Positions 844 to 38,840 of a stretch of 64,000 nucleotides of DNA are shown piece by piece. Where the stretch lies: the NCBI GenBank assembly GCA_963801855.1, contig CAWDGK010000003.1:45066-109065 (forward strand). The letters are read 5' to 3'. Under the pieces are notes generated by a model, which did no database searches, was not told where the DNA came from, and worked only from the letters and a program-made list of their open reading frames with translations. Source of the DNA: an uncultured Actinomycetes bacterium (lineage in GTDB: Bacteria; Actinomycetota; Thermoleophilia; Gaiellales; Gaiellaceae). Within the stretch, counting starts at the first letter, position 1; every line of letters begins with the position of its first letter. The translations under genes were made by a program, and so were the position numbers.

Positions 844-3800
844 CCGAGAGGCGACTGAGCCTCGGCGAGGTAGGCCGTGGCGCCCACCTCGCGGAAGAAC
901 TCGATCGCCTTGTCGAGACTCACCGTGGCTCCATGCGCGCGCGCCGTAGAGCCTGCTCAGCGCCGCGTGGTAGCGGGAGCTCATTCGCTCGAAGATCTCG
1001 ACGGCGTGGGCGAATTCGCCGCGGCCGAGCGCCAGCCCGGAGTCCCGCCACGGCGTCGGGTGTAGATCTCGAGCGAGCTCGTCGAGCTCGTCCAACCACC
1101 CGAGCGCGCCGAGGACGGTCGCAGCGTCGATGAACCATTCGGAGACGACACGACGGGAGGTCGACCCGTGGATGTCGAGAACCTCTCGGGCGAGCGCCTC
1201 GACCGAGTCCCCACGGGCCTGCAGCTGCACGGCACGCCAGGAGAGGGCCGGCAGCAGAACCTGCGACTCGTTGCTCGAGCGAGCCCTCTCGAGCGCGACC
1301 CGCGCCTCGGAATCGGCCGCCTCGGCGTCGCCGCGTGCCAGGAGAATGCGGCTGCGCAAGAGCCTCCATGTCGGCTCGAGATAGTGGCTCTCGCCTTCCG
1401 GGACGCCTGCGAGGAGTGAGTCGCAGATCTCCTCTGCCTCCGCCCACTGACCCGCGTACAAGGCGTTCTCGGCCTTCGCCCCCCGCGCCCACCGAAGCCA
1501 CTCCACTCCGCCCCAGCGCAGCGCTTCCGCCAGTTGCTCGTCCCCGACTGCCCGAGCACGCTCGACCTCGCCGAGGAGAGAGAGCGAGTAGCGCAGATTG
1601 TTGTAGCTCCGGATCACGTACGGGGTGTTGAGCGCCCGCAGGATCTCGACGCTCTGCTCGAGCAGGGCGAGCCCCTGGCGGTCCCCCTCTGCGGCATGGC
1701 GGACTCCGAGATTGCCAAGAACGTGCCCGCGAACGAAGTCCAGCCCGAGCTCGGCGGCCATGGCCAGAGCGTCCTCACCGAACCGTTGGGCGTCCTCGAG
1801 CCGGTCCGCGAGGGCGTTCGCGCTGGAGAGGTACGAGTAGGCCAGCGCCTTGGTCGGCGAGAGCGGCAGCTCCGCCGCCATCTGGAGCAGGCGTTCCAGG
1901 CCGTGTCGCCTCTCGTCACCGCGTCCGTGGAGCCAGCGGACATTGACGATCCGCTGCTCGGCCTGGACGGCCCGGTCGAGGTCGCCGGCCGCCAGCAGGG
2001 CATCGCGTACGCCGACGAGCTCCTCCACGTTCGCGAAGGCGTGTTCGTACCGGGCGAGCGCCGCGTCGAAGCTGATGCGCGTGCGCTCGAGGTCGTCGTC
2101 GGGCCACAGCGTCGCCGCGCGGTCGTACCAGGCGGCCGCCTGCTGGAACGAACCGAGTGCGTTCGCCCGGTCGCCGGCATCACGGAGCGCGAAGCGAGCC
2201 GCGTCGGCGAGGCCTTCCGTGTCCTGCCGGGACGCCTGGGCGGCGTCGAGCGCGCTGACGTAGTGGTGAGCGAGCAGGTCGACGTGATCTTCGGGTCGAC
2301 CGAGCCCCTCGATCCATTCCGCCGCCCGCCGGTGCTTCTCCGCCCTCTGCGCGCGCGGGATCTGCCCGTACGCGACCTCTCGTACGAGGCCGTGCACGAA
2401 TGTGTGCTGGGTGTCGCCGCCGACCGACGACCGGCGCTCCGTGCGAACGTACTGCTTCCGCTCGAGCGCGTGCAAGAGCGCTTCTGCCTCGCCGTCGTCA
2501 CGGTCGCCGAGCGCCGCTACCGCGCCGCGCCAGAAGACCTTTCCGATGACCGCGGCGTCCTGGAGAAGCGCCTTCTCGTCGCTCGTCAGGGTGTCGAGGC
2601 GCGCGGCGATCAGCCCCTGGACGGACTCGGGAAGCGGCAGCTCGCCGCCGTCGGTTCCGTGACGGTCGCGCGCGATGCGGGCGAACTCCTGCGCGTAGAG
2701 CGGGTTACCGCCCGCGCGGTCGAGCAGGGTTGCCTGGGTCTCCGCGGGAAGGACGGCGCGCTCGAGCAGTCCGTGGATCAGCGTTGCGGTCTCCTCCTCG
2801 CTGAGGGGCGAGAGCGAGACGGCAGTCGCGTTGGGCTTCCCGCCACCCCAGGTCGCCCGGCGCGTCAGGAGCTCTGGCCGCGCCGTGACCACCACGAGGA
2901 TCGGCGCGTCCCCCGCCCAGTCGACGAGATGGTCGATGAAGTCGAGGAGCCCCTCGTCTGCCCAGTGGAGGTCTTCGAACACGAGGACGAGCGGGCTCAG
3001 GTCAGAGAGGCCCTCGAAGAATCGCCGCCAGGCGGCGAACGCTTCCGTGCGCCGGTCGCCGCCGGGGTCGCCGGCCTCGGCGGCGTCTCCGAAGCCGATC
3101 AGCGATCCGAGATGGCGCCCGGCCCACACCGCGTCGTCCTCATCCGGAATCGCCTCCTCGACGACGGCGCGCAGCTTCGCCGCGGCCTCCTCTGCCGCCT
3201 CTCCCTCGAGGATTCCAGCGTGCGCCTTCACGATCTCGCCGAGCGCCCAGAACCCGCTCTCCCCGTACGGCAGGCACCGCCCCTGGCGCCAGAACACGAG
3301 CTCCGGCGCGCTGTCGACGCGGAGGAACAGCTCCTGCACGATCCGCGTCTTTCCGATGCCGGGAACTCCGGAGACCGTGACCAGCTGCGGCGAGCGTTCC
3401 TGGGTCGCTCGGGCGAGCGCGCGGGCGAGGGTCTCGACCTCGTGCTTGCGGCCGACCAGGGGCGTCCCGGAGTCGCGCGTCACGTCTTCGCCGAACCGGG
3501 AGCGTGCTTCGACCACCTCCCAGACGGCGATCGGCTCGGACTTGCCCTTCGCTGCGACCGGCGGTGCGTCGCGGTAGTCGATCGTTCGCGACGTCGCGTT
3601 GTAGGTAGTCGCGCCGACGATGATCCCGTTTACCGGCGCGGCGCTCTGAAGGCGAGAGGCCGTGTTCACGACGTCGCCGGCGACGAGCCCTCGCTCCGCG
3701 CCGGGGCTTGGCTCGAGCGACACGAGCACCTCGCCGGTATTGACGGCGATCCTCACCTCGAGGTCACCCTCCTCGCGGATCCAATCCCTGATCGCAAGTG

Positions 3801-4050
3801 CCGCGCGCACGGCGCGCTCGGGGTCGTCCTCGTGTGCGACCGGAGCGCCGAACACCGCCATCACCGCGTCGCCGATGAACTTCTCCACCGTCCCCCCGCG
3901 CTGCTCGAGCTCGGTGCGGAGCCGGTCGTGAAACGGAGCGAGGATCGCCTCCACGTCCTCCGGGTCGAGGGTCTCGGCGCGCGCCGTGAAACCGACGAGG
4001 TCGGCGAAGAGGACGCTCACGACCTTGCGCTCTCGTCGGGGATCCGCCAC
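709..4050 (-). CDS. Class III adenylate/guanylate cyclase - P-loop STAND/AAA ATPase - TPR signalling protein; 3' end frame-disrupted
   Basis: The N-terminus (KVVSVLFADLVGFT...FIGDAVMAVFGAP) is a cyclase catalytic domain, followed by the P-loop GVPGIGKT and a long TPR-like C-terminal half. The plausible ending for such proteins (SLDKAIEFFREVGATAYLAEAQ) lies in a different frame (ORF 636..923). The switch falls inside a (GC)n run at about 935-945, so the true stop is uncertain. Confidence 0.8.
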   Translation of the reverse strand: MADPRRERKVVSVLFADLVGFTARAETLDPEDVEAILAPFHDRLRTELEQRGGTVEKFIGDAVMAVFGAPVAHEDDPERAVRAALAIRDWIREEGDLEVRIAVNTGEVLVSLEPSPGAERGLVAGDVVNTASRLQSAAPVNGIIVGATTYNATSRTIDYRDAPPVAAKGKSEPIAVWEVVEARSRFGEDVTRDSGTPLVGRKHEVETLARALARATQERSPQLVTVSGVPGIGKTRIVQELFLRVDSAPELVFWRQGRCLPYGESGFWALGEIVKAHAGILEGEAAEEAAAKLRAVVEEAIPDEDDAVWAGRHLGSLIGFGDAAEAGDPGGDRRTEAFAAWRRFFEGLSDLSPLVLVFEDLHWADEGLLDFIDHLVDWAGDAPILVVVTARPELLTRRATWGGGKPNATAVSLSPLSEEETATLIHGLLERAVLPAETQATLLDRAGGNPLYAQEFARIARDRHGTDGGELPLPESVQGLIAARLDTLTSDEKALLQDAAVIGKVFWRGAVAALGDRDDGEAEALLHALERKQYVRTERRSSVGGDTQHTFVHGLVREVAYGQIPRAQRAEKHRRAAEWIEGLGRPEDHVDLLAHHYVSALDAAQASRQDTEGLADAARFALRDAGDRANALGSFQQAAAWYDRAATLWPDDDLERTRISFDAALARYEHAFANVEELVGVRDALLAAGDLDRAVQAEQRIVNVRWLHGRGDERRHGLERLLQMAAELPLSPTKALAYSYLSSANALADRLEDAQRFGEDALAMAAELGLDFVRGHVLGNLGVRHAAEGDRQGLALLEQSVEILRALNTPYVIRSYNNLRYSLSLLGEVERARAVGDEQLAEALRWGGVEWLRWARGAKAENALYAGQWAEAEEICDSLLAGVPEGESHYLEPTWRLLRSRILLARGDAEAADSEARVALERARSSNESQVLLPALSWRAVQLQARGDSVEALAREVLDIHGSTSRRVVSEWFIDAATVLGALGWLDELDELARDLHPTPWRDSGLALGRGEFAHAVEIFERMSSRYHAALSRLYGARAWSHGESRQGDRVLPRGGRHGLPRRGSVASRLRAAAPEADRARRRLSPSRRCPRAAPAGLDSRCGGEHARGHGRP

Positions 4051-4164
4051 GTCGCGATCATAGGAAGGACAGCCTGAAGGAGTAGGCCGACGGACGTTTG
4101 CCGCATCACCCGCCCGCCGGCCCTCACCACTAGACGATTGACCAGCGGACGGATCTTCCTTCGG

Positions 4165-5334
4165 CTATCTCAGGCGCTCGACCTCGTAGCCCCAGGAGGC
4201 CATAGCACCGAGCAGGAGCCCCACGTGCTCCTGGTCGCGCGTGATCAGCGTCAGCTCGACCTCCGTTTGGGACACAGGCATGTCCATTCCCTCCCTGTGA
4301 TGCTCGACCGAGATGACGTTCGCCCGTTCCTGCGCGATGAGCGTCAGGAGCTTGACGAGCTCCCCTGGTCGGTCCGACAGCCTCGTCCGCAAGACGAGGA
4401 AGCGGCCGGAGAGCGTCAAGCCGTGTCGGATGACCGAGATCAGGAGCGTCGGGTCGATGTTTCCGCCGGACAGGACGATCGCGACGGGACCTGAACCACC
4501 GACCTTGTCGCCGAGCAGGGCGGCGACCCCAACGGCTCCTGCACCCTCCACGACGAGCTTCGTCCGCTCGAGCAGGAGCACGATCGCCTCGCTGATCGCC
4601 TCGTCGTCCACCTCGACCATGTCGTCCAGGAGCCGGTCGAGGATCGACATCGTGAGCTCGCCGGGCTTTTTCACGTAGATCCCGTCGGCGATCGTGTAGC
4701 CGGAGAGGCCGGCCTGGACTCCGACGAGACGGAGCTCGGGCCGTAGCTCGCGCAGGGCGATCGCAACCCCCGATGCCAGCCCGCCGCCCCCGACGGGAAT
4801 GACGACCGTCTGCGCGTCGGCCACCTGGTCGGCGAGCTCGAGCCCGAGCGTTCCCTGGCCGGCGATCACCAGCGGGTCCTCGAACGGGTGGATGAACGTC
4901 GCCCCGCGCTCCTCGACGTCGGCCCGGGCGGCCGCCATCGCGTCCTCGAAGCGCTCGCCAACCATGATCAGGTCGGCGCCATAGGTCCGGCAGGCTTCGA
5001 CCTTCGCCATCGGGGCCTCCTGCGGGACGTAGATCCGGGCTTTCACGCCGGCCTGCCGCGCCGCCCAGGCGACGGCCTGACCGTGATTTCCGGCGCTGGC
5101 CGCGACGACACCCGCCTCCCGCTCGTCGTCACTCAGCATCGCGAGCCTGTTGACGGCACCGCGCACCTTGAATGCGCCTGTGCGCTGGAGGTTCTCCGCC
5201 TTCAGCCAGACGTCCCGGCCCGAGATGCGCGAGAACGTCTCGGAGCTGTAGACCGGGGTCTCCCGCGCGACGCCCGCGATGCGCTCACGCGCCTCGCGGA
5301 TGTCAGTGGGGGTCGGTGCCGTTTCCGTCTGCAT
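4165..5334 (-). CDS. ilvA: Threonine dehydratase / threonine ammonia-lyase (PLP-dependent, C-terminal ACT-like regulatory domain)
   Basis: 389 aa. It has the PLP-lysine motif TGAFKVRGA, the glycine loop GGGGLASG, and a C-terminal ~80 aa regulatory domain. Confidence 0.85.
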   Translation of the reverse strand: MQTETAPTPTDIREARERIAGVARETPVYSSETFSRISGRDVWLKAENLQRTGAFKVRGAVNRLAMLSDDEREAGVVAASAGNHGQAVAWAARQAGVKARIYVPQEAPMAKVEACRTYGADLIMVGERFEDAMAAARADVEERGATFIHPFEDPLVIAGQGTLGLELADQVADAQTVVIPVGGGGLASGVAIALRELRPELRLVGVQAGLSGYTIADGIYVKKPGELTMSILDRLLDDMVEVDDEAISEAIVLLLERTKLVVEGAGAVGVAALLGDKVGGSGPVAIVLSGGNIDPTLLISVIRHGLTLSGRFLVLRTRLSDRPGELVKLLTLIAQERANVISVEHHREGMDMPVSQTEVELTLITRDQEHVGLLLGAMASWGYEVERLR

Positions 5335-6307
5335 CGTCTGGCCGGATGTGGAAGACCTTCTCCATGATCTCTCGAACGGCGGTGAGCGGGTCGAGCTCGC
5401 GGCGCTGGACCCCGTCCAGGAGCCGTCTGAGCTCGGGGTCGTCCGCGACCGTCTGCTCGAGATGGGATTTTGCCCGTGCCGAGGCGACCGTGAAGACCTC
5501 CCCGGCGAGATTCTCGCGCCGGCGCACGTCGAGGAGCTCGTTGGTCTCGAGATGCTCGCGGTGCGCTTCGATCCGATCCCAGAGCTCCACGACCCCCTCG
5601 CCGGTCACGGCCTCCGTCAGGACGATGGGCGGATGCCAGTCGCTTTCGAGGTCGAGCGCGAGGATCGACCGCACCTCGTTCAGCATCGTCTTGGCCGCCG
5701 GGTGATCCTTCTTGTTCACGGCGATCACGTCGGGGATCTCCATGATCCCGGCCTTCAACGCCTGGACGGAGTCGCCTGAGCCCGGCATCAACACGAGGAC
5801 GACGGTGTCCGCCACGCCGATCACCTCGATCTCGCTCTGCCCGGTCCCGACGGTCTCGAGGAACACGAGGTCTCGCCCGGCCGCGTCGAGGATGAGGAGG
5901 GCCTGCAGCGTTGCCTCCGCCAGCCCGCCGAGATGCCCGCGCGTCCCCATGGAGCGGATGAAGACCCCGGGGTCGAGGAAATGGTCGGCGAGACGGATCC
6001 GATCGCCGAGGAGCGCGCCCTTTGAGAACGGGCTCGACGGGTCGACGGAGATGACGCCGACCGTCTTCTCCTGGCCGCGCACATGCCGGACGAGCGCGCT
6101 GATGAGGCTCGACTTGCCGACGCCGGGTGGCCCTGTGATCCCGATGGCATACGCCTGGCCCGTCTCGGGATAGAGCGCCCGAACGAGGTCGTACGCCATC
6201 GGGTCGGAGTTCTCGACGAGTGAGATCGCCCGGGCGAGCGCACGCCTGTCGCCGCCCCGGACTCCCGCGAGCAGCGTCTCGGGGGTCCAGTCGCGCCGCC
6301 CGGCCAC
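5303..6307 (-). CDS. meaB: Methylmalonyl-CoA mutase-associated GTPase MeaB/ArgK family
   Basis: It has the P-loop GITGPPGVGKSS and the motifs DPSSPFSKGALLGDRIR and NKKD. I placed the start at GTG 6307 (VAGRRDWTPETLL...), just after the stop of the upstream MFS gene. The longer ORF start at 6460 would overlap that gene. Confidence 0.8.
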   Translation of the reverse strand: MAGRRDWTPETLLAGVRGGDRRALARAISLVENSDPMAYDLVRALYPETGQAYAIGITGPPGVGKSSLISALVRHVRGQEKTVGVISVDPSSPFSKGALLGDRIRLADHFLDPGVFIRSMGTRGHLGGLAEATLQALLILDAAGRDLVFLETVGTGQSEIEVIGVADTVVLVLMPGSGDSVQALKAGIMEIPDVIAVNKKDHPAAKTMLNEVRSILALDLESDWHPPIVLTEAVTGEGVVELWDRIEAHREHLETNELLDVRRRENLAGEVFTVASARAKSHLEQTVADDPELRRLLDGVQRRELDPLTAVREIMEKVFHIRPDDADGNGTDPH

Positions 6308-6317
6308 ACGAGCAAGC

Positions 6318-7574
6318 CTAGAGGCGCGCGGTCTCGACGGGCTCGGGTTCTCGTTGCGGCCTGACCGAGACCTGTGATCCGGTGTCCAGGCCGCGGGCAA
6401 GCAGGAGAGCCACGACCGCCGCCACCGCCGAGAGCGCTCCTGCAATCGCCCAGACCGCACGCGGGCCGAGCAGGTCGGTGAGCGGCCCGGACGCGACCAT
6501 GCCGATTCCGAGCACGACGTAGTTCGAGCTCATCAGGAGCGTGAAAGCCCGGCCGCGGAGCTCGTCCGGTGCCCCTCGCTGGACGAAGAGCGCGTTGCAG
6601 ACCACGGCGGCGCCGTTTCCCGTTCCGAGGACGATGACGCAGAGCGCGGCGATCCAGACGTTCGGCGAGGCTGCAGCCCCGACCATGCCGACGGCGACGA
6701 GGGCGATCGACGTCGCGTAGACGGTTGCGATCGCACGCTGTTCGAGCAGCGACCCGGCCAAGAGGCTCCCGAATGCCAGGCCGATGCCTGTGGCGCCGAC
6801 GAGCAGGCCGTAGCCGAAGTCGCCGGCGCCGAACGCTTCCTTGGCGAGCACGACCTCCGCGACGTTGACGCAGGCGCTCGCCAGCATGATCACGTTCCAG
6901 ACGGTGAGGACCGTGAGGAGAGCGCGGGAGCCTCGGACGAGCGCGAAGCCGTCCGCGAGATCGCGCCAGTAGCCGCGGCCGATCGCCGGCGCAGCCTGCA
7001 GCAGGCGATCCGGGATGCCGGCGAGCAGCGCCGCCGAGACGAGGAACGTGACCGAGTTGATCCAGTAGGCCGCGTCCGGACCGGTCGCCGCGACGAGGAT
7101 TCCGCCAATCACCGGCCCGATGGCCCACGCGAGATTCTCGATCGTCTGCAGAAGCGAATTCGCCTGAGGGAGATCCTCGTCCGGCAGGAGGTTCGGAAGC
7201 CCGGCGTAGAGCGCCGGCCGGAAGAATCCCGTTGCGAAACCGGCCACGGCCGCGAGGGCGACGATCGCCGCAGGCTCCTCAGCGAATGGCAGGGCGGCAA
7301 AGATCGCGACTCGCAGAAGGTCGGAGGCGATCATCAGGCGCCGCCGGGGGAGGCGGTCGACGAGGGAGGCGGCCGCAACTCCGATCAGGATCGCGGGGAG
7401 GAAGTCTGCGATCAGGAGCGCGCTGACCCACACCGCAGACTGGGTGCGGTCGTACACGTCGATCGTGAGGGCGACGAACGCGAGCCACGTTCCGAACGCC
7501 GAGCCGACCGTCGCGAGCGCGAGCAGGCGAAAGCTCTGGGCTTCCCGCAAGAGCGTGACCTGTCGGTTCAGCAA
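6318..7574 (-). CDS. MFS transporter (12-TM type, efflux-like)
   Basis: 418 aa, hydrophobic throughout, with the MFS loop motif LVDRLPRRRLM between TM2 and TM3. Confidence 0.8.
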   Translation of the reverse strand: MLNRQVTLLREAQSFRLLALATVGSAFGTWLAFVALTIDVYDRTQSAVWVSALLIADFLPAILIGVAAASLVDRLPRRRLMIASDLLRVAIFAALPFAEEPAAIVALAAVAGFATGFFRPALYAGLPNLLPDEDLPQANSLLQTIENLAWAIGPVIGGILVAATGPDAAYWINSVTFLVSAALLAGIPDRLLQAAPAIGRGYWRDLADGFALVRGSRALLTVLTVWNVIMLASACVNVAEVVLAKEAFGAGDFGYGLLVGATGIGLAFGSLLAGSLLEQRAIATVYATSIALVAVGMVGAAASPNVWIAALCVIVLGTGNGAAVVCNALFVQRGAPDELRGRAFTLLMSSNYVVLGIGMVASGPLTDLLGPRAVWAIAGALSAVAAVVALLLARGLDTGSQVSVRPQREPEPVETARL

Positions 7575-29256: not shown

Positions 29257-30182
29257 GAGGGTTCGGCGCGCAACTCGCGCAGCGCCCGGCCGAGCGACTG
29301 CCCGCCCTGAAGCGTCGGCGCGAACAGATCGCCGTGCCGTTCGAGCCGCTCCAGCGCCTCGCGCATCCCGAAGTCGCGCGGACGGATCTTCTCGCCGAGC
29401 TCGTCCCAGCGGAGCGGCGTCGAGACGGGGGCGCCGGGCTTCGGCCGGACCGAGTACACGGACGCGAGCGTCTTCCCGTGGCCGTTCTGACGGTGGTCGA
29501 CGAGGACGCCGCGCCGTTTCTTGATCAGCCACTCGGTCGTTACGAGGCCGGGATGCGCCTGCTCGAGCCGGCGGGAAACGCGCTCGGCGAACTCGTACGT
29601 CTCGGGGAACGAGGAGCGGCGGGCGATCGGCACGAGCACGTGGATGCCGTCCGCGCCGCTCGTCTTCACGTAGGAGCGGAGCTCGAAGCGCTCCAGCGCC
29701 TCGCGGACTAGGTGTGCCACCCGCACAGCCTGTGCGAACCCGTTCCGCGACGCGGGCGGATCGAGGTCGAACACGACATAGTCCGGCCGTTCGTGGCGGT
29801 CGGCACGCGAGTACCACGCGTTCATGTCGATGCAGTTCATCTGCACCATCCAGACGGCGGCCGCCGGCTCGTTCACGATCGCGAAGTCGACGAGCCGGGG
29901 CCCGCCCTCGCGGGGCATGGTGCGGAACTGGCGCGTCGGGACCCACGAAGGCTTCCCCTTCGGGACCTGCTTGTGGAAATAGGGCTGACCCCGGATTCCG
30001 TCGGGGTAACGCTTGAGCGTGAAGGGTCGGTTCCGCAGGTGCGGGATCAGTGCCGGGCCGACTTCGGCGTAGTACGTCGCGAGGTCGCCCTTCGTGACGC
30101 CGTCGCCCGGGAAGAGCACGCGTTCGCCGCTCGTCAGCCGGACGGAGCGCCGGCCGACGCGGAGCTCCTCGGCTTTAGCCAA
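29253..30182 (-). CDS. Stand-alone LigD-type polymerase/primase (AEP) domain protein
   Basis: 309 aa. Matching stretches include YPDGIRGQPYFHKQ, VVFDLDP, VKTSGADGIHVLVPI, and VLVDHRQNGHGKTLASVYSVRP. Confidence 0.85.
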   Translation of the reverse strand: MAKAEELRVGRRSVRLTSGERVLFPGDGVTKGDLATYYAEVGPALIPHLRNRPFTLKRYPDGIRGQPYFHKQVPKGKPSWVPTRQFRTMPREGGPRLVDFAIVNEPAAAVWMVQMNCIDMNAWYSRADRHERPDYVVFDLDPPASRNGFAQAVRVAHLVREALERFELRSYVKTSGADGIHVLVPIARRSSFPETYEFAERVSRRLEQAHPGLVTTEWLIKKRRGVLVDHRQNGHGKTLASVYSVRPKPGAPVSTPLRWDELGEKIRPRDFGMREALERLERHGDLFAPTLQGGQSLGRALRELRAEPS

Positions 30183-31356
30183 CGCCGGCGAGCAGGAATG
30201 CGCGCTGCTCGCGCAGCATCTCGCGGGCGATCACGAGCCGCTGGATCTGGTTCGTCCCCTCGTAGATCTGGGTGATCTTCGCGTCGCGCATCATCCGCTC
30301 GACCGGGTACTCCTGCATGTAGCCGTAGCCGCCGAGGATCTGGACGGCGTCGGTCGTGACGTCCATCGCGACATCGGTGCAGAAGAGCTTCGCCATGGCG
30401 CTGATCTTCGTCAGCTCGGAGCCGTCGACGCCGTCGTCGATCATCTGGCCGCACTTGTAGAGGAGGAGGCGCGCGGCCTCGCACTTCGTCTCCATGTCGG
30501 CGAGAGTCGCCGAGATCAGCTGGTGCTGCGCGATCGGCTTGCCCATCGTCTCGCGGCCCTTGGCGTAGTCGAGCGCGTAGTCCGTCGCCCCCTGGGCGAG
30601 CCCGAGGCCCTGCGCGCCGATGCCGGGTCGCGAGCGGTCGAGGATCCGCATCGCGATCTTGAAGCCCTCGCCCTCCTCGCCGAGCAGGTTGTCCGCCGGG
30701 ATCCGCATGTCGTTGAAGAAGATCTCGCCGGTCGTCGAGCCCTTGATCCCCATCTTCGGCTCGATCCGCCCCACCTCGAAGCCCGGCGTCGAGGCGTCGA
30801 CGACGAAGGCCGAGATCCCCGAGTGGCCCTCGGCCGGATCGGTCTTCGCGAACACGGTGTAGAGGCTCGCGACGCCGGCGTTCGTGATGAAGCGCTTCGA
30901 CCCGTTGATGACGTACTCGTCGCCTTCGAGGCGGGCTTCGCTTCGCATGGCTGCGGAATCCGACCCTGAACCGGGTTCCGTGAGGGCGTACGCGCCGAGC
31001 CATTCGCCGGACGCCAGGTTGGGCAGGAAACGCTGCTTCTGCTCGTCCGTTCCGGCCAGCTTGATCCCCAGCGATCCGAGCTCCTGGACGGCGATGATCA
31101 ACCCGCTCGTGGCGCAGACCTTCGAGACCTCCTCGATCGCCACCAGCGTCATCAGCGCCGAGGCGCCGAGCCCGCCGTACTCCTCGTCGTAGAGGACGCC
31201 GAAGATCCCGTGCTCGCGGAAGACCTCGACGACGTCCCAGGGAAACTCGGCCGACTTGTCGATCTCGGCGGCACGCGGAGCGATGCGCTCGCGCGCAAGC
31301 TCGCGGATCAGCTTGCGGATCTCCTGCTGTTCCTCGGAGAGCGGCTCGGTCGGCAT
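30175..31356 (-). CDS. Acyl-CoA dehydrogenase
   Basis: 393 aa. Matching stretches include GAYALTEPGSGSD, QILGGYGYMQEYPVERMMRDAKITQIYEGTNQIQ. Confidence 0.9.
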   Translation of the reverse strand: MPTEPLSEEQQEIRKLIRELARERIAPRAAEIDKSAEFPWDVVEVFREHGIFGVLYDEEYGGLGASALMTLVAIEEVSKVCATSGLIIAVQELGSLGIKLAGTDEQKQRFLPNLASGEWLGAYALTEPGSGSDSAAMRSEARLEGDEYVINGSKRFITNAGVASLYTVFAKTDPAEGHSGISAFVVDASTPGFEVGRIEPKMGIKGSTTGEIFFNDMRIPADNLLGEEGEGFKIAMRILDRSRPGIGAQGLGLAQGATDYALDYAKGRETMGKPIAQHQLISATLADMETKCEAARLLLYKCGQMIDDGVDGSELTKISAMAKLFCTDVAMDVTTDAVQILGGYGYMQEYPVERMMRDAKITQIYEGTNQIQRLVIAREMLREQRAFLLAGVG

Positions 31357-31394
31357 GGCTGAAATCCTAGAGCCACCCTGTTAGGTTCCGCACG

Positions 31395-32507
31395 ATGGCC
31401 AAGCGAATCGGCCTCCTCGCCGCCCTCTTCGCACTCGGTGCCAGCTCGATGGCGGTCGCCTCGGGCGGAAGCCGCGACTACGGCTGGGAGCTGACGCCGA
31501 CCGGTTCGGCGGCGCGACTCCGTGGGCTCTCCGTGGTCAACGAGCGCACGGTCTGGACGAGCGGAAGCCTCGGGACCGTGTTGCGCACGACCAACCACGG
31601 ACGGAACTGGGAGTCGGTCGGCCCCCCCGGCACGGAGACGCTCCAGTTCCGGGACATCGAGGCCTTCGACCGCAACCATGCCGTAATCCTCTCGATCGGA
31701 AACGGCCCCGACTCGCGCATCTACCGGACGTCGAACGGCGGCAGGACCTGGCAGCTCGCGTTCCTGAACCCGGACCCGCTGGCGTTCTACGACTGCATGA
31801 CCTTCTTCGACCGGAAACACGGCCTGGCGCTCTCCGACCCGGTCAACGGTCGCTTCAGAATCCTGGCGACGAAGGACGGAGGGCGCAGCTGGAACGTCGT
31901 GAACGCCGACATGCCGCCGGCGCTGCCCGGCGAGTTCGCCTTCGCCGCGAGCGGGCAATGCATCACGTCGACTGGCGACATCCTCGGCGGGCGCGGAGGG
32001 CACGACGATGACGACGATGACGACGGCGGACGCCACGGCAGCCGAGCCGGTGACATCGCCTGGTTCGGGACCGGCGGCGACGCCGTGGCCCGGGTGTTCC
32101 GCTCGAGCGACGGCGGCAAGCGCTGGACCGTCCACAACACCCCTATGCACAGCAACGCGGCTGCGGGAATCTTCGCCCTCGCCTTCCGCGACACACTCAA
32201 CGGGCTCGCGGTCGGTGGCGACCTGGTCACACCGGCAGCCTCACCGAACATGATGGCGCTGACGCGAGACTCGGGGAGAAACTGGGCCCTCGTAGCGGAC
32301 AACCCCAACCAGTACCGCTCGGGCGCCCACTGGGTGAACGACAAGAGCGCGATCGCGGTCGGGCCGACCGGCAGCGATGCGACGTTCGACCGGGGTCGCA
32401 CGTGGGACCGCTTCGACGACGGCAGCTTCGACACGGTCGACTGCGTCGAGGGCGGAGCCTGCTGGGCATCCGGCGAGCAGGGCCGCGTCGCCTTCCTCAC
32501 CCGCTGA
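31395..32507 (+). CDS. Secreted BNR/Asp-box beta-propeller protein (Ycf48-like)
   Basis: It has a signal peptide and repeated motifs of the form S/T-x-D/N-G-G-x-T/S-W (TTNHGRNWES, TSNGGRTWQL, TKDGGRSWNV, SSDGGKRWTV, TRDSGRNWAL, FDRGRTWDR). Confidence 0.75.
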   Translation: MAKRIGLLAALFALGASSMAVASGGSRDYGWELTPTGSAARLRGLSVVNERTVWTSGSLGTVLRTTNHGRNWESVGPPGTETLQFRDIEAFDRNHAVILSIGNGPDSRIYRTSNGGRTWQLAFLNPDPLAFYDCMTFFDRKHGLALSDPVNGRFRILATKDGGRSWNVVNADMPPALPGEFAFAASGQCITSTGDILGGRGGHDDDDDDDGGRHGSRAGDIAWFGTGGDAVARVFRSSDGGKRWTVHNTPMHSNAAAGIFALAFRDTLNGLAVGGDLVTPAASPNMMALTRDSGRNWALVADNPNQYRSGAHWVNDKSAIAVGPTGSDATFDRGRTWDRFDDGSFDTVDCVEGGACWASGEQGRVAFLTR

Positions 32508-32591
32508 TCTCGCTCGCGCCGAATCGGGGATACCGGCCGCGCCGGATGGGTGACACGCGAACCGCCATGGGCCCGCCGATGATCGTGGAAC

Positions 32592-33648
32592 ATGACCCGT
32601 TCCCGCTCCCATCGGCTGATCGTCCTCGCGATTCAGCTCCCTTTCCGTCCTCGGCCTGGCCGGGGCCGTCGGGGCGTCCGCCGCGGTCTGCCCGGCGCGC
32701 CCCCTTCCTCCCTGTAACCCGGGGAGATTCACGGGCAGCGTCGGGGCTCAGCCGGCTCGGTGCGCCACCAAGCCGCCCACTTGCCGCGATCGGCGAGGCA
32801 GTCAGGGCCCACGCGGAGCACGAGGTCGACGAGGTGCCCCGGGCAAGATCGGAGCAACGGGACAAGGCGCGACCGGTGCTGCCGGAGCGCAGGGCTTCCA
32901 AGGAGCCGCCGGCGTCTCGGACGTCCCCGGTCCTGCAGGGCCCATCGGCCTGCAAGGAGCCGCAGGGGTCGCGGGCTCCAACGGCTCCCAGGGAAATCAG
33001 GGCGTCCAGGGCGTAACCGGCGCAGCCGGTCTCCAGGGACCCTCCGGTCCCCAGGGAGTGACGGGTACGACAGGATCGACAGGCACGACGGGCGCAGGAG
33101 GCTCTCAGGGCGCCCAGGGAACCACCGGCCCGGATGGGCCCGCCGGCCCACAGGGACCTGCCGGAGGCGTGGGCCCTCAGGGCGTGACCGGGCCCGCAGG
33201 GTCGACTGGAGCGACCGGAGCGACCGGTTCGAACGGGCTGTCGCAGTACGCCTACGTCTACAACCTCACGGCCCGCACGGTTCCGATCAATGCCGATGTC
33301 ATCTTCGACTCGAACGGCGTCGCGACCGCCGGCATCACACACGCGCTGGGGACTGCCGAGATCGTGCTCGTGAACGCCGGCGACTACAAGGTCACCTACT
33401 CGGTCTCCGGCACGGAGACCAACCAGATGGCGCTGTTCGTGAACGGGGTCCTGGCTCCCGGCACCATCTACGGCGCGGGCGCCGGCACGCAGCACAACAC
33501 GGGACTGGCGATTCTCACCGTCGGCGCGGGCGCCTCGCTCTCGCTCAGGAACCACGGCTCCGCCGCGGCCGTCGGGCTTGCGTCAGCCGTCGGAGGCACC
33601 CAGCCGAACACGAACGCGGCCGTGACACTCGAAAAGCTCTCGCCGTGA
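32592..33648 (+). CDS. Collagen-like triple-helix repeat protein with BclA-type C-terminal domain; frame change in the signal-peptide region near 32640
   Basis: The ATG at 32592 (frame 3) gives MTRSRSHRLIVLAIQL. Frame 1 continues with LSVLGLAGAVGASAAVC, a Cys-rich linker, and about 49 GXY triplets (32797..33237). The ~136 aa C-terminal domain (LSQYAYVYN...ALFVNGVLAPGT...AAVTLEKLSP) resembles the BclA C-terminal domain, which ends ...IIIEKVA. Confidence 0.75.
32797..33237 (+). repeat. GXY (collagen-like) coding triplet repeat, about 49 units with two phase interruptions
   Basis: Frame 1 reads GSQGPRGARGRRGAPGKIGATGQGATGAAGAQGFQGAAGVSDVPGPAGPIGLQGAAGVAGSNGSQGNQGVQGVTGAAGLQGPSGPQGVTGTTGSTGTTGAGGSQGAQGTTGPDGPAGPQGPAGGVGPQGVTGPAGSTGATGATGSNG. 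Confidence 0.9.
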
Positions 33649-34355
33649 CCCTCGGCGCACTCGTCGTGGCCGTGGCGGTCATGACGGGAGCCGCAGCCCC
33701 GTCACGAGCGGATACCGGGTCGGCGATCAAGGTGAAGCCGACGCAAGAGCTCGCCGTCCTCTTCAGCTCGCACCAAGTTTTCTCAGCGCCCGATGCGCGC
33801 GCCACGCGGGTCAGCACTCTCCGAAGCTCGCGACCGGTCACAGGCGGCCAGACCGTCGTCCCGATCGTCGGTCGGAGGACCGCAAACGATGGCGTTCACT
33901 GGCTGCAAGTAATGGTTCCCGGTCGCCCGAACGGCGCGCACGGGTGGGTCAAACGATCCGGCACTCTCCAGACGAAGACGAGCTGGCACGTTGTCGTCCG
34001 GACATCCAGCCGCCGACTTCTCGTTTACCGTCGCGGCGGCATCGTGCGGTCCTTCCCTTCGATCGTCGGCAAGCGTTCCACCCCGACCCCACACGGGCGG
34101 TTCTTCGTCGAGGAGAGCGTCCGCCTTCCGAGGGGCGAGGCCGGGGCCCCGTTCGCCCTCGCACTCAGCGCTCGATCTACGGTGCTGCAGGAGTTCGCCG
34201 GCGGCCCGGGTCAGATCGCCGTCCACGGGATGTCGAACATCGGCGGGAACCTCGGAACCGCAAGCTCCCACGGCTGCGTCCGGGTAGCCGACGGGGGCAT
34301 TCGCTGGCTTGCGGCGCGCATCACGCCGGGCGTGCCGGTCTCGATCGTCCCCTGA
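33645..34355 (+). CDS. L,D-transpeptidase (YkuD domain) with signal peptide
   Basis: The GTG at 33645 overlaps the collagen-like stop (GTGA). It has VTLGALVVAVAVMTGAAAPSRA and the catalytic region IAVHGMSNIGGNLGTASSHGCVRV. Confidence 0.85.
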   Translation: MTLGALVVAVAVMTGAAAPSRADTGSAIKVKPTQELAVLFSSHQVFSAPDARATRVSTLRSSRPVTGGQTVVPIVGRRTANDGVHWLQVMVPGRPNGAHGWVKRSGTLQTKTSWHVVVRTSSRRLLVYRRGGIVRSFPSIVGKRSTPTPHGRFFVEESVRLPRGEAGAPFALALSARSTVLQEFAGGPGQIAVHGMSNIGGNLGTASSHGCVRVADGGIRWLAARITPGVPVSIVP

Positions 34356-34371
34356 CCGACGCGCTCGCGGC

Positions 34372-35907
34372 CTAGAGGTCTCGGGGCTTCAGGTCCTTCG
34401 TCGTCGGGCCCTGGATCGCCCGGCCGTCGGCTGCGTAGCGGGAGCCGTGGCAAGGGCAGTCCCAGCTCCGTTCGGCGGAGTTCCAGTCGACGTGGCAGTA
34501 CAGATGGGGACAGATCGGAGAGAAGCCGTGGACGGTGCCGTCGTCGTCCCGGTAGACCGCGGTTTTCCGGCCGCGGACCCGGACGATCGCCCCTTCACCG
34601 CGCCCGACCTCGTCCACCGAGCCCTTGCCGGCGCGCCGCAGCCGGTCGGCGACGAAGTGGTATCCGGCGCCCGCGTTCTCCTTGACGAGGCTGGCGAGTC
34701 CTGACCGGCGCACCATCCGCTTGGAGTCGAAGAGATCGGCCCAGGGACTGGTCCTTCCGAGGATCGAGTCGGTGATGATCGACGCGCCCACCGTCCCGTT
34801 CGTCATCCCCCACTTGTTGTAGCCCGTCGCTGTGTAGAGGTGGTCGGCGCCGCGACGGACCCGGCCGATCAGCGGCACCTGGTCGTGCGGCATGTAGTCC
34901 TGGGTCGACCACCGGTACTCGACTTCGCCGGCGCCCGGCCAATGCTTGCGGAGGAACTCCTCGAGCTGGTCGTAGCGCGCGGGCGTGTCGTCCTCGTCGC
35001 CGGTCTTGTGGCCGTTGCCGCCCACGTTGATGTAGAGCTGCCCGCCGTCGCTCATCGTCCGGATCGACCTCGTCGGCGTGCCGGCGTTCAGGAACATGCC
35101 GTCGGGCGCCTGCTCGAGATCGATCGGCGCGGCGATCGCATAGCTCCGGTGCGGGTAGGTCTTGGCGAAGAAGAGGCCGCGGTCGAGGATCGGGAGGTGC
35201 GTTGCGACGACGACGTCCTTCGCGCGCACGACGCCCTGCTCCGTGATCACCTCACACGGTTCGCCGTGCTTGACGGTCTGGACGCGCGAGTTCTCGAAGA
35301 CGTGGCTGCCGTCGCCCGAGATCGTCGCCGCCAGTGCGAGGAGGTACTTGCGCGGGTGGAATTGCGCCTGGTTCTCGAGCCGGACGGCGGCGGTGACCGG
35401 GTACGGAAGCGGTGTCTCGCGCACGAGGCTCGACGGGAGACCGGCAGCCTGCTCGGCGTCGACCTCCTCCTTCACCTGCGCCGCCTGCTCCTCGTCCTCG
35501 GCGTACGCGTAGTTCGCCTTGCGCTCGAAGTCGCAGTCGATCGCGTCCTCCTCGACGAACTGCGCGATCCGCTCGATCGCCGCCTGGTTGGCCGTGGCAT
35601 AGGTTCGGGCGCCGTCCTCGCCGAAGGCCTTCCGGATCTTCGTGTAGCCGAGCCCGTGGCCGGATGTGACCTTGGCGGTCGTGTAGCCCGTCGCGCCATG
35701 GACGATTCGGCGCGAGTCCAGGAGCGCGACGGTCTTTCCCTCCCGCTTCAGGAGGACGGCGGCGGTGATCCCGGTGATTCCGGCCCCGACGACGGCGACG
35801 TCGACGTCGATTCCGTCGGTCAGAGCCGGGTAGTCGGTCTCCGGCGTCGTCCCGATCCAGAAGGACGGTCCTCCCTGCGTCATGAGTGTGTCTTGGGCGC
35901 TCGTCAT
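34372..35907 (-). CDS. FAD-dependent oxidoreductase fused to a C-terminal Rieske [2Fe-2S] domain
   Basis: It has the dinucleotide fold VAVVGAGITGITAA and the Rieske motifs CPHLYCH...CPCHGSRY. Confidence 0.85.
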   Translation of the reverse strand: MTSAQDTLMTQGGPSFWIGTTPETDYPALTDGIDVDVAVVGAGITGITAAVLLKREGKTVALLDSRRIVHGATGYTTAKVTSGHGLGYTKIRKAFGEDGARTYATANQAAIERIAQFVEEDAIDCDFERKANYAYAEDEEQAAQVKEEVDAEQAAGLPSSLVRETPLPYPVTAAVRLENQAQFHPRKYLLALAATISGDGSHVFENSRVQTVKHGEPCEVITEQGVVRAKDVVVATHLPILDRGLFFAKTYPHRSYAIAAPIDLEQAPDGMFLNAGTPTRSIRTMSDGGQLYINVGGNGHKTGDEDDTPARYDQLEEFLRKHWPGAGEVEYRWSTQDYMPHDQVPLIGRVRRGADHLYTATGYNKWGMTNGTVGASIITDSILGRTSPWADLFDSKRMVRRSGLASLVKENAGAGYHFVADRLRRAGKGSVDEVGRGEGAIVRVRGRKTAVYRDDDGTVHGFSPICPHLYCHVDWNSAERSWDCPCHGSRYAADGRAIQGPTTKDLKPRDL

Positions 35908-35955
35908 GGCGGCTCACTACCTGTTCGCCCCGGAACGGAAACTAGATTGTCCCCG

Positions 35956-37491
35956 ATGATCCTGGAGCGCGGAATCGTCCGCACGCTCGAGCCGTCCCTC
36001 CCGACCGCCTCCGCGCTGGCGATCGCCGGCGACCGGATCGCCGGCGGCGTCGGGACGCACGAGCGGGCTCTGCCGGGCCCCGAGCGGGTCGATCTCGGCG
36101 GCCGGTGCGTCGTCCCCGGTTTCTCGGACGCGCACGTCCATTTCCCGACCTGGGCTCTCGCGCAGCGGGAGGTCCGGCTCGAGGGTGTCGGGTCGGTGGA
36201 AGAGGCGGTGGCGCGAGTCCGTGACGGCCTCGGCTCGATTCGTGAGGGCGGCTGGCTTCGCGGCCGCGGCTGGCGCGACGCCGGCTGGCCGACACGGCCG
36301 ACGAGGGAGGCGCTGGACGAGGCCGCCGGCGACGTGCCGGTCGCGTTGCTCGCGCAGGATTCGCACTCGCTCTGGCTGAACTCGGCGGCGCTGGCGAGGG
36401 CGAATGGGAATCTCGAGGTCGAGGGTGGAGTCGTCGAGCGGGACGCCTCAGGTGAGCCGACCGGGATCCTCCGCGAGGAAGCCTGCTGGATCTTTCGCGA
36501 CCGCCACATCGAGATCGCCGATTCCGAGCACATCGAGGCCATGCGGGCGGGGCTGCGGATCGCGGCTTCCAGAGGCGTCACCGCGGTTCACGACAAGGAC
36601 GGCTGGATCGGCGCGCTGCGGTTCTGGCAGGCACTCGCCGCCGACAGCGCGCTGACGCTTCGCGTCTGGCAGTCGGCCCCCGCCGAGCAGCTCGAAGAGC
36701 TGAACGATCTCGGGATCCGAAGTGGCTTCGGCAACGACATGCTCCGGCTCGGCTACCTAAAAGCCTTCATGGACGGGACGCTCGGCTCGCAGACCGCGAG
36801 GATGCTCGATGGCACCGGCGTCCAGATCACGAGCAAGGAATTGCTGGTCGACATCGTTCGGCAGGCTGCCCCTGCCGGCTGGCCCGTCGCGGTTCACGCG
36901 ATCGGAGACCTCGCGAACCGAGAGGCGCTCGACGCCTTCGAGGAGACGCGCGAGGAGTGGGCGCCGCTCGGGCTTCGGCACCGCATCGAGCACGCGCAGC
37001 TCCTGGCGCCGGAGGATGTCGGGCGCTTCGCCGCGATCGGGGTCGCAGCCTCGGTCCAGTTCAGCCATGCGCCGTCCGACCGGGACATCGCGGACAGGTT
37101 CTGGGCGGGCAAGACCGACTGCGCCTACGCGTACCGGTCGTTGTGGGAATCGGGCGCGGTCGTCGTGAACGGCTCGGACGCGCCGATCGAAGAGCTCGAC
37201 CCGCTCGCGGGAATCCGAGCGGGCGTCCTTCGCACGCTCGACGAGCGCCCGGCCTGGCATCCCGAACAAACGCTGAGCGTGGAGCAGGCGTTCCACGCAA
37301 CCTGCGTGACCCCGGCCTGGCTCTCCTACGACGAGCACCGGCGCGGAAAGCTCATCCCCGGCTACCTCGCAGACCTCGTCGTGCTCGATCGCGATCCGTT
37401 CGCGCTCGACCCCGAGGAGCTGGCGGAGGTCCAGGTCGTTGCCACGATGCTCGGCGGCCGCTGGACGCACAACCCGCCGCCCTGGGACTAG
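35956..37491 (+). CDS. Amidohydrolase family 3 (YtcJ-like metal-dependent hydrolase)
   Basis: From ATG 35956 (MILERGIVRTLEP). It has the motifs PGFSDAHVHF, AVHAIGD and NGSDAPIE. The upstream part of ORF 34840..37491 is antisense to the FAD/Rieske gene. Confidence 0.85.
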   Translation: MILERGIVRTLEPSLPTASALAIAGDRIAGGVGTHERALPGPERVDLGGRCVVPGFSDAHVHFPTWALAQREVRLEGVGSVEEAVARVRDGLGSIREGGWLRGRGWRDAGWPTRPTREALDEAAGDVPVALLAQDSHSLWLNSAALARANGNLEVEGGVVERDASGEPTGILREEACWIFRDRHIEIADSEHIEAMRAGLRIAASRGVTAVHDKDGWIGALRFWQALAADSALTLRVWQSAPAEQLEELNDLGIRSGFGNDMLRLGYLKAFMDGTLGSQTARMLDGTGVQITSKELLVDIVRQAAPAGWPVAVHAIGDLANREALDAFEETREEWAPLGLRHRIEHAQLLAPEDVGRFAAIGVAASVQFSHAPSDRDIADRFWAGKTDCAYAYRSLWESGAVVVNGSDAPIEELDPLAGIRAGVLRTLDERPAWHPEQTLSVEQAFHATCVTPAWLSYDEHRRGKLIPGYLADLVVLDRDPFALDPEELAEVQVVATMLGGRWTHNPPPWD

Positions 37492-37497
37492 CCCCGC

Positions 37498-38840
37498 TCA
37501 GTCTTTGAGCTTCGCGAAGTCGCGGAAGAGCTCCTTCGCCGACTCGACTGCCAGTGGAATGTGGTCGACGCGAAGGCGCTCGTTCGGGGAATGGATGTTT
37601 CCCTCGGGCAGGTCGAAGCCCGTGATGATCGTGGGAATGCCCTTGCCGGCGAGCGCTGGCACGATCGGCAGGGTTCCGCCGACGCGGATCAGAAGCGGTC
37701 TCGCCCCCACGACCCGCTCGAACGCGTCCTGCCCCAGCCTGATCGCGGGCGAGTCGGGCGGAATCAGGCCCGGAGCGGCGCTCGACCAGCGCTCGACCTC
37801 GACATCTGCGCCCTCCGGTGCCGATTCCCGGAGAAGCCGCTCGAAGACCGGAGCGATCGCGTCGGGATCCTGTCCGGGTGCGAGCCGGATCGAGACGTTC
37901 GCCTCGGCGAAGACCGGCAGCACCGTCTTCTGAAGAGTCGGCTCGCCGCCGACGAAGCCGTTCACGGTCACCGCCGGCTCGCCCCAGGTTCGGGAGTAGA
38001 ACTCGTCAGCTGCACCCCTGTCCGACGGCCGCGCCCCGCCTTCCGCCAGCATCTCCGCTCCCGGCTCGAGCTCCTGCCAGGCGCTCTCCTCTTCCTCAGA
38101 GGGCGGCACAAGCCCCTCGCGAAGCGGCTCGGGCAGGAGCCCGTTCTCGCCCGGAAGAACGCCGCGAAGCGTTGCCAGCAGCGCGTCTGTCGAGCTGAGC
38201 GCGGCGCCGCCGAAAACGCCCGAGTGGAGATCACGCTCGCCTGTGCGCACGCGAACGTGGAAGTAGACGAGGCCGCGCGTGGCCACGTGGAAGACCGGCG
38301 CGCCCGGCCGGAGCATCGCCGAGTCGAAGATGACTGCCGCGTCCGCTCCCCGCTCGTCCTGCTCGATGAACTCGACGACCTGATGTCCGCCGGTCTCCTC
38401 TTCGCCGTCACACACGAACCGGACGTTCACCGGCAGCTCGCCGGCGCCGGCGAGCGTCTTCGGCCGCCTTCAGGAGACAGTAGAGCTGGCCCTTGTCGTC
38501 GGCGGTGCCGCGCGCATACAGCCAGCCGTCCCGAACCGTCGGCTCGAACGGGTCGCTCTCCCACGCCTCGAGCGGCTCGGGCGGCTGGACGTCGAAGTGG
38601 CCGTAACAGAGCACGGTCGGCGCGTCGTCAGCGCCCGACGACGCGCGAACCTCGCCAACGACGAGCGGAAACGTCGGAGTCTCCGACGAGCTCGGCCTCG
38701 CCGCCCATCTCCCGAATGAACGCGGCCACCCACTCGGCGGCCACGCGCACATCGTCCTTGCGCTCGGGGTCGGCGCTGATCGAAGGGATGCGGAGAAGCT
38801 CGGAGAGCTCCTCCATCCACTGCTGCGGAACGTCAGCCAC
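37498..38840 (-). pseudogene. M20-family dipeptidase/peptidase, split into three frames
   Basis: ORF 38628..38840 (LLRIPSISADPE...) runs into ORF 38408..38752 (LCYGHFDVQPPEP...ARGTADDKGQL) after an extra nucleotide near 38685 (CTC GTC [G] GAG ACT). That ORF then runs into ORF 37498..38430 (VNVRFVCDGEEETGG...) after an extra nucleotide near 38461 (GCG GCC [G] AAG ACG). Confidence 0.85.

Follow-up and report, generated by a model that had tools for sequence, protein, structure and literature searches.

In this study, we analysed a window of 64,000 nucleotides (nt) from an uncultured actinobacterium of the Gaiellaceae (contig CAWDGK010000003.1) and observed a gene for a collagen-like protein with a BclA-type head, directly followed by the gene for a secreted L,D-transpeptidase (Ldt) of the YkuD type. 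The collagen-like gene (32592-33648, + strand) encodes a signal peptide, an N-terminal module containing four cysteines, a stretch of about 48 Gly-X-Y triplets and, at the C-terminus, a head of 137 amino acids (aa). A comparison of homologous loci indicates that the pair is gained or lost as a unit and that the adjacency of both genes is conserved across the class in three gene orders. We propose that the two genes form a cell-surface fibre cassette of non-sporulating Thermoleophilia-type actinobacteria, in which the fibre has a lineage-specific base and a dedicated Ldt and would be covalently anchored to the peptidoglycan; taken as a whole, this reading falls just short of an even chance. An earlier sequence-only reading of the window had described a signal peptide, a Cys-rich linker, collagen repeats and a C-terminal domain of the BclA/C1q type, as well as a GTGA overlap with the start of a secreted YkuD protein. 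All of these elements were recovered, with the counts refined to about 48 triplets and 137 aa, and the profile and structure comparisons described below support the assignment of the head.

The head (33235..33648, + strand; 137 aa to 33645, plus the stop codon) matches the Pfam family BclA_C (PF18573) over profile positions 2-127 of 128 with 43.2 bits (gathering score 38, E = 4e-11). Its best sequence match in the Protein Data Bank, covering the whole domain, was 9H38 (phmmer, E = 3.8e-14), the C-terminal domain of F-BclA. In Bacillus thuringiensis, this protein forms the collagen-like fibrillum at the tip of the F-type endospore appendages (Sleutel et al., 2025, PMC12357932). An AlphaFold2 model of the head, based on 11 homologues, is all-beta with a predicted local distance difference test value (pLDDT) of 77. 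In Foldseek, 9H38 was again the best match with a template modelling (TM) score of 0.84, while BclA (1WCK/2R6Q) reached TM 0.74-0.78 and C1q (1PK6) TM 0.73; ExsFA/BxpB and ligands of the TNF family could also be superposed. According to this model, the head has the BclA/C1q-like jelly-roll fold with its ten strands. At the sequence level, the identity is about 21% to BclA and about 27% to F-BclA. A sub-threshold match to DUF4183 (15.8 bits versus 25.1) falls in the head and outside the connector.

The collagen-like triple-helix region (32797..33234, + strand) matches Pfam Collagen (PF01391) with 66.8 bits (cut-off 27.2, E = 1.5e-18). Its approximately 48 triplets are arranged in runs of 7, 6 and 34, interrupted twice (GQ and DVP), and the region is rich in Thr, Ser and Gln. 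A stalk of this length would measure about 40 nm. Among homologues the stalk comprises 33 to 336 triplets, and in the Solirubrobacterales protein with 336 triplets (L055, 2776-6408; 1,210 aa) it would near 300 nm. ATG, GTG and TTG start codons are absent from the collagen reading frame before 33058, and the public gene call for the contig contains the gene only as a 159-aa fragment with an internal GTG start in the repeats (33172). Most public calls of the family (P0001-P0120) likewise begin within the collagen repeats (MGPxG..., MGPxGPAG...). They are truncated because the repeats are without start codons, so that gene callers choose an internal GTG or ATG, and consequently the signal peptide and the cysteine module are missing from the database entries. 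This systematic truncation is an annotation problem that hides the N-terminal module and the true architecture.

The mature N-terminal module (32683..32796, + strand) is a segment of 38 residues with four cysteines, AVCPARPLPPCNPGRFTGSVGAQPARCATKPPTCRDRR, arranged as A-V-C1-P-ARPLPP-C2-NPGR-FTG-SVG-AQPAR-C3-ATKPPT-C4-RDRR. It is preceded by the start codon and a Sec-type signal peptide (32592..32682, + strand) that ends in ASA before the predicted cleavage site. In 33 full-length homologues the signal peptide is intact and can be aligned with that of the window; they share the motif AxA↓A-C-P (the arrow stands for cleavage). Export by the Tat pathway was considered and rejected, as the twin-arginine is not conserved (SHRL in the window, RYRS in many homologues). 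In the alignment, the four-Cys motif is kept in 34 actinobacterial homologues, and the intact pattern consists of a signal peptide ending in AxA↓A and then C1-P-x2-P-x-P-P-C2-x4-[FL]-T-G-x2-G-x3-4-R-C3-x4-6-P-x-C4-x3-R-G-P-R-G. C2 and C3 are strictly conserved. Thirty sequences have both C1 and C4, three (L024, L026 and L080) have neither, and one (L021) is without C1 only. This pattern of co-loss suggests C1-C4 and C2-C3 disulfides, and the joint loss of C1 and C4 disfavours C1 as the lipidated cysteine of a lipobox. The module was not present in the Bacillota or Verrucomicrobiota homologues of the head and occurs only in the lineage that has the Ldt. An exhaustive phmmer search of 1.84 billion representatives gave seven matches to the module; of the six retrieved, five are members of the family described here and the sixth (P0246) is an artefact of low complexity. 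No evidence for the module on other heads was found in these six of the seven matches (P0243, 3,486 aa, was left out). The sequence of the fibre protein contains no LPXTG motif, and Pfam and NCBIfam profile searches detected no SLH, LysM or other wall-binding domain in it. NCBIfam models of sortase-anchored collagen-like adhesins (Scl1/Scl2, Lcl) reached 69-77 bits versus cut-offs of 325-500 and matched the collagen repeats only.

The Ldt gene (33645..34355, + strand) encodes a secreted protein of 236 aa. Its GTG start (33645-47) lies over the TGA of the collagen-like gene (33646-48), forming a GTGA stop-start overlap (33645..33648, + strand), and the public gene call for the contig uses the identical start. 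The protein matches YkuD (PF03734) with 68.4 bits (cut-off 23.4) and consists of a signal peptide (about aa 1-22), a beta-rich N-terminal domain (about aa 30-110) and the YkuD catalytic domain (aa 113-236). The residues H194, S208, H209, G210, C211 and R213 (S208-H-G-C211-V-R213) are invariant in 29 orthologues. This catalytic motif aligns with that of Bacillus subtilis YkuD, which is, together with Mycobacterium tuberculosis Ldt1/2, the nearest solved relative (E = 1e-6 for YkuD). The Arg of the motif is missing in the amidase DpaA (PMC12729407) and is present in the window enzyme. The N-terminal domain gave only a weak match to SH3_3 (E = 0.015); the AlphaFold2 model of the enzyme was confident for residues 30-140 only, and a fold search with it gave Ldts at TM of about 0.3. 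The NCBIfam equivalog model for LdtE scored 14 bits (cut-off 480), and we know of no sequence signature that separates anchoring from cross-linking Ldts. At the related locus L083, the junction of both genes (5864-5870) has CTGA in place of GTGA, with the first residues (TLG) conserved, which would be consistent with coupling by reinitiation. For the L083 YkuD, the next canonical in-frame start lies deep in the mature part, and the 199-aa public call omits the signal peptide; either reinitiation uses the CTG or the start has been called wrongly.

A search with the head yielded 223 proteins and 362 loci in species-representative genomes, and PF18573 was present in 120/120 of the homologues listed. 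Gene linkage was determined by tblastn with the window YkuD in the best 80 of the 362 head-seeded loci. This sample comprises 38 actinobacterial loci from metagenome-assembled genomes (MAGs) of Thermoleophilia, Solirubrobacterales or 'Actinomycetes' and 42 loci from Bacillota (Sporosarcina, Paenibacillus, Neobacillus and others) or Verrucomicrobiota. Of the 38 actinobacterial loci, 33 had a YkuD orthologue (44-67% identity, >150 bits) at most 2.5 kb from the fibre gene, and none of the 42 loci from the other two phyla, with heads of 60-65% identity, had one near the head gene. In the reverse test, three of three YkuD orthologues that were chosen only for their long contigs sit immediately after a BclA_C collagen gene. 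The co-occurrence of collagen-like and YkuD genes, which the sequence-only reading had put forward from a single locus, is therefore a recurrent property of the actinobacterial loci.

Three gene orders were observed. In the window type, the collagen-like gene is followed by the YkuD gene, in some loci with a DUF4333 gene in between. In the second type, the Ice_binding, YkuD, collagen and DUF4333 genes follow each other on one strand, frequently with 4-nt overlaps, and in the third, Ice_binding and YkuD (transcribed in this order) are divergent from collagen and DUF4333. Many Solirubrobacterales have a four-gene cassette composed of an Ice_binding-like secreted protein (PF11999 plus Big_7), YkuD, the collagen-BclA_C protein and a small DUF4333 lipoprotein (L001, L003, L006-L009, L011, L012, L014, L015, L018-L020, L032, L034, L043 and L076; about 3000-6800). 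The window cassette is without the Ice_binding and DUF4333 genes. In seven loci (L001, L003, L006, L007, L009, L019 and L076; about 2200-3100, - strand), a small secreted matrixin-like metalloprotease (Peptidase_M10, HExxH) is encoded just upstream of the cassette, which places a member of the collagenase family next to a collagen-like gene.

In the window, the two-gene cassette spans 1.87 kb (32501..34371, + strand) and is absent from the related contig L086 (blastn, gene map). The flanks of L086 match the window at 29814-32500 (90.4%) and at 34372-38736 (81.6%), and 32501-34371 has no counterpart (L086 2685-2693); a BNR gene abuts a Rieske/FAD oxidoreductase gene at the position of the cassette. 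As L086 is without exactly both genes, the pair behaves as a single accessory cassette. L083 contains the cassette, and a glyoxalase gene takes the place of the Rieske gene. The site is a small hot-spot of gene turnover.

Between the actinobacteria, Bacillota and Verrucomicrobiota, the identity of the head is 60-70%, far above that to BclA or F-BclA. The N-termini differ by lineage, with Cys/Lys-rich connectors in Bacillota, an extra domain of about 150 aa in Verrucomicrobiota and the four-Cys module in Actinobacteria. From these sequences, it looks like one head was exchanged among lineages onto different anchors. In the literature searched, we found no description of a collagen-like and YkuD pairing nor of BclA-type proteins in Thermoleophilia. 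The sequence-only reading had regarded the host as unusual. There is indeed no characterised member in such bacteria, but the window gene is not isolated, with hundreds of genes in MAGs of Thermoleophilia/Solirubrobacterales. The domains themselves are already known and annotated automatically. New are the non-sporulating actinobacterial setting, the four-Cys base and the conserved Ldt cassette, which usually includes a DUF4333 lipoprotein and an Ice_binding-like protein.

The fibre would be assembled as follows. The head would trimerise and nucleate the triple helix, as deduced from BclA, C1q and adiponectin, and the N-terminal cysteines would form C1-C4 and C2-C3 disulfides that staple or bundle the base. 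With the base at the wall and the head pointing outward, as in the BclA/C1q family, the protein would form a nap or fibril on vegetative, non-sporulating cells. The Ldt would transfer a meso-diaminopimelate (meso-DAP) tetrapeptide stem, the donor, to an amine in the base of the fibre; the likeliest acceptor would be the alpha-amine of the Ala that becomes N-terminal after cleavage by signal peptidase. The resulting covalent tether would parallel those made by Ldts with N-terminal Ala-Asp or Gly-Gly of outer membrane proteins in Brucella and Coxiella. Acceptors described for Ldts are C-terminal lysines and, in Brucella (Ala-Asp) and Coxiella (Gly-Gly and Ala-Gly), N-terminal alpha-amines (PMC12729407). 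Solirubrobacter is Gram-positive and non-spore-forming with meso-DAP peptidoglycan (PMC10722151). Three points speak for covalent anchoring: the fibre is without LPXTG, SLH, LysM or any other anchoring device, the lineage-specific base co-occurs with the enzyme, and Ldts are known to accept N-terminal alpha-amines. Taken by itself, a covalent anchorage of the fibre to meso-DAP peptidoglycan by a dedicated Ldt may lie anywhere from doubtful to nearly even. The more specific proposal, in which YkuD joins the N-terminal amine of the fibre to the meso-DAP peptidoglycan of a monoderm actinobacterium by a sortase-independent route, belongs at the doubtful end of this range.

Several observations weigh against a covalent anchor. 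As read from the loci, gene adjacency indicates a functional relation and says nothing of the chemistry. Five of the actinobacterial loci have the fibre gene without an Ldt within reach; two of them have less than 610 nt of upstream flank, so that an upstream Ldt could be missed, and L058 is a clear Ldt-less case with the N-terminal module intact. In 22 loci the Ldt overlaps the gene of the Ice_binding-like secreted protein by 4 nt, a coupling tighter than that to the collagen gene, and in 31 loci the DUF4333 lipoprotein gene lies directly after the collagen gene, which in the order collagen, DUF4333, YkuD puts it between collagen and YkuD. The real partner of the Ldt could be the DUF4333 lipoprotein, the Ice_binding-like protein or the peptidoglycan itself, and the fibre might instead be held by disulfides or by the DUF4333 lipoprotein. 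The known cases of protein anchoring by Ldts are all in Gram-negative bacteria (PMC12729407). Moreover, the conserved N-terminal A-A-C of many homologues also fits a loose lipobox, and hence another mode of anchoring. Almost as likely as the covalent anchor is a non-covalent functional link, itself a tentative reading, in which the Ldt makes 3-3 cross-links or remodels the peptidoglycan locally for the co-expressed envelope proteins (fibre, DUF4333 and Ice_binding-like) and disulfides or non-covalent contacts at the base keep the fibre in place. The standard cross-linking motif of the enzyme including the Arg, its nearest solved relatives, which are cross-linking Ldts, the other secreted or lipid-anchored proteins usually encoded in the cassette, the four conserved cysteines as an alternative attachment and the absence of a Gram-positive precedent for Ldt anchoring (PMC12729407) all agree with such a link. 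However, a general cross-linker has no obvious reason to stay by one fibre gene through three rearrangements or to share its loss, and the fibre has no recognisable non-covalent wall-binding domain. It is also conceivable that the fibre is a lipoprotein with C1 lipidated and the stalk anchored in the membrane, and that the Ldt ties another part of it to the peptidoglycan, as a collagen-based analogue of Braun's lipoprotein. In most homologues [VTAS]-A-A-C follows the hydrophobic core in the alignment and agrees with the permissive PROSITE lipobox, the DUF4333 protein encoded nearby is clearly a lipoprotein, and Lpp, too, forms a trimeric rod that Ldts attach to peptidoglycan (PMC12729407). We nevertheless consider lipidation improbable: the window protein has A-V-C, where Val at -1 does not fit, the four homologues without C1 (three of which have also lost C4) keep the AxA motif of signal peptidase I, the long signal peptides with a Pro at about -7 are typical of signal peptidase I substrates, and the protein ends in EKLSP without a C-terminal Lys.

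A different question is whether the window copy is functional. The sequence-only reading had placed a frame change near 32640 and considered inactivation of the gene by a genuine frameshift. The frame change in the signal-peptide region is real, but it is caused by a single extra base at 32629..32633 (+ strand), as shown by a MAFFT DNA alignment of the window with L083, and an assembly error is the likelier cause. The frame of the ATG at 32592 begins with MTRSRSHRLIVLA..., turns to nonsense and reaches a stop at 32715, and the collagen frame (+1) is open from 32620 to the TGA at 33646-48. The signal peptide begins in frame 0 (32592 to about 32630) and continues in frame +1, where its remainder reads ...SSLSVLGLAGAVGASA. 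At the site, the window has CTCGCGATTCAGC where L083 has CTCAC-ATTGAGC (for the shorter span, ctcgcgattcag versus ctcac-attgag), and the extra base lies outside any homopolymer. Removal of one base results in a protein of 351 aa, equal in length to the nearest orthologues L083/L084, which have 81% identity in the head, share the flanking genes and are intact with 351 aa starting with MSDMRCRRLLVLTLSSLAVLGPATAVSASAAACPARPLPPCNPGRFTGSVG...; 33 other actinobacterial homologues are in frame across this region. A programmed +1 frameshift or phase variation was rejected, given that a slippery or homopolymeric tract and an in-frame stop are lacking at the site and the 33 homologues are in frame. The alternative of a genuine pseudogene, in which a real 1-nt insertion abolishes export and the cassette is decaying, appears unlikely but has to be taken seriously. 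The frame change is present and outside a homopolymer, and the cassette is dispensable, being absent in L086 with a 90% identical flank; both points also count against the reading proposed here. Other MAG homologues are disrupted as well (L017, L018, L059, L064 and L079). On the other hand, the remaining window reading frame is open over 342 codons without stops and has 73% identity to the intact orthologue, and the coupled YkuD gene is intact. The M20 peptidase gene 5 kb away (37507-38816, - strand) is split over three frames by two 1-nt insertions in comparison to the intact 439-aa orthologue in L083 and the continuous reading frame in L086, and with 79-86% identity its protein is no less conserved than those of the intact neighbours. 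Three +1 insertions in 6 kb without other decay indicate indel errors of the assembly. Judged by these alignments, the extra base is thus probably an assembly error rather than the mark of a true pseudogene. Finally, an origin of the protein as a prophage-derived collagen-like tail fibre, with the Ldt as an incidental neighbour, is close to refuted. The head does match PHROG 30509 'collagen like minor tail' (E = 5.9e-37), and the record of Bacillus phage PHBA67-J contains a copy with 54% identity; however, only 2/50,697 phage records contain the head, the PHBA67-J copy is located beside an integrase, an insertion sequence and host genes outside any tail module, the window protein has a signal peptide and lies in an ordinary chromosomal context, and the Ldt linkage recurs in 33/38 loci.

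A collagen-like stalk with a BclA_C/C1q-like head is shared with the F-BclA and L-BclA tip fibrilla (9H38), in which a lineage-specific N-terminal connector sets the attachment target, as here, and L-BclA-type connectors are also cysteine-rich (PMC12357932). F-BclA and L-BclA dock on endospore appendage (ENA) pili or the spore exosporium, whereas the actinobacterial family occurs in Gram-positive, non-spore-forming Thermoleophilia and has a Sec signal peptide, its own four-Cys module and an Ldt partner. BclA of Bacillus anthracis (1WCK) has the same domain order and fold despite the low identity of the heads (about 21% for the window), and in both families the stalk length varies between strains or species. 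In the window protein, a cleavable signal peptide takes the place of the exosporium leader, and no exosporium-leader family was matched in its NCBIfam search. BclA is anchored through ExsFA/BxpB and not to peptidoglycan. Its host sporulates and forms an exosporium, whereas the closest homologues of the window protein are from Thermoleophilia/Solirubrobacterales, of which Solirubrobacter is non-spore-forming (PMC10722151). Scl1/Scl2 also display a globular domain by a collagen-like stalk on a Gram-positive surface and are covalently anchored by a transpeptidase (sortase). Their globular domain is N-terminal and LPXTG is C-terminal, whereas here the head is C-terminal, LPXTG is lacking and the candidate enzyme is an Ldt; the Scl models of NCBIfam gave 69-73 bits with the window protein (cut-offs 325-400). 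C1q, adiponectin and the collectins have the same order of signal peptide, short Cys segment, collagen helix and C1q-type head, which is trimeric in animals. In animal C1q-type proteins, the N-terminal cysteines bundle trimers into higher oligomers. Beyond the head fold (TM about 0.73), a sequence relation to them is undetectable, and in the bacterial setting prolyl hydroxylation is not expected. Precedents for tethering by Ldts are LdtA/B/C and Lpp in Escherichia coli, Ldt4 and outer membrane proteins via N-terminal Ala-Asp in Brucella, and Ldt2 and BbpA via Gly-Gly in Coxiella (PMC12729407). Like the window pair, these systems combine a YkuD enzyme with a dedicated secreted partner, a conserved mature N-terminal Ala and meso-DAP peptidoglycan. 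They are diderm and connect membrane to wall, whereas a fibre that points outward from a monoderm would be the partner in the present case. The lipobox Cys and C-terminal Lys of Braun lipoprotein-like proteins are both missing in the window protein (A-V-C; EKLSP).

The cassette is surrounded by ordinary chromosomal genes for an acyl-CoA dehydrogenase, a BNR protein, an amidohydrolase, an M20 peptidase and a primary sigma factor. Eight consecutive aspartates (GGHDDDDDDDDGG) are inserted in the propeller of the upstream BNR/Ycf48-like secreted protein (31395-32507). A scan for promoters and terminators in 32300-34600 found nothing.

To our knowledge, few soil actinobacteria are as abundant and as rarely cultured as Thermoleophilia/Solirubrobacterales, and the cell surface of these bacteria is almost unstudied. 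The family described here, whose head shares 60-70% identity with heads of soil Bacillota, is a broadly conserved candidate for a nap on this surface, with a depth between 30 and almost 300 nm. It raises the question whether Ldts, which have been described as protein tethers in Gram-negative envelopes only, display proteins on Gram-positive walls too. If the proposed anchoring is true, this would be the first Ldt-dependent, sortase-independent display of a surface protein on a Gram-positive wall, and abundant soil Thermoleophilia would carry a widespread and so far unseen surface nap.

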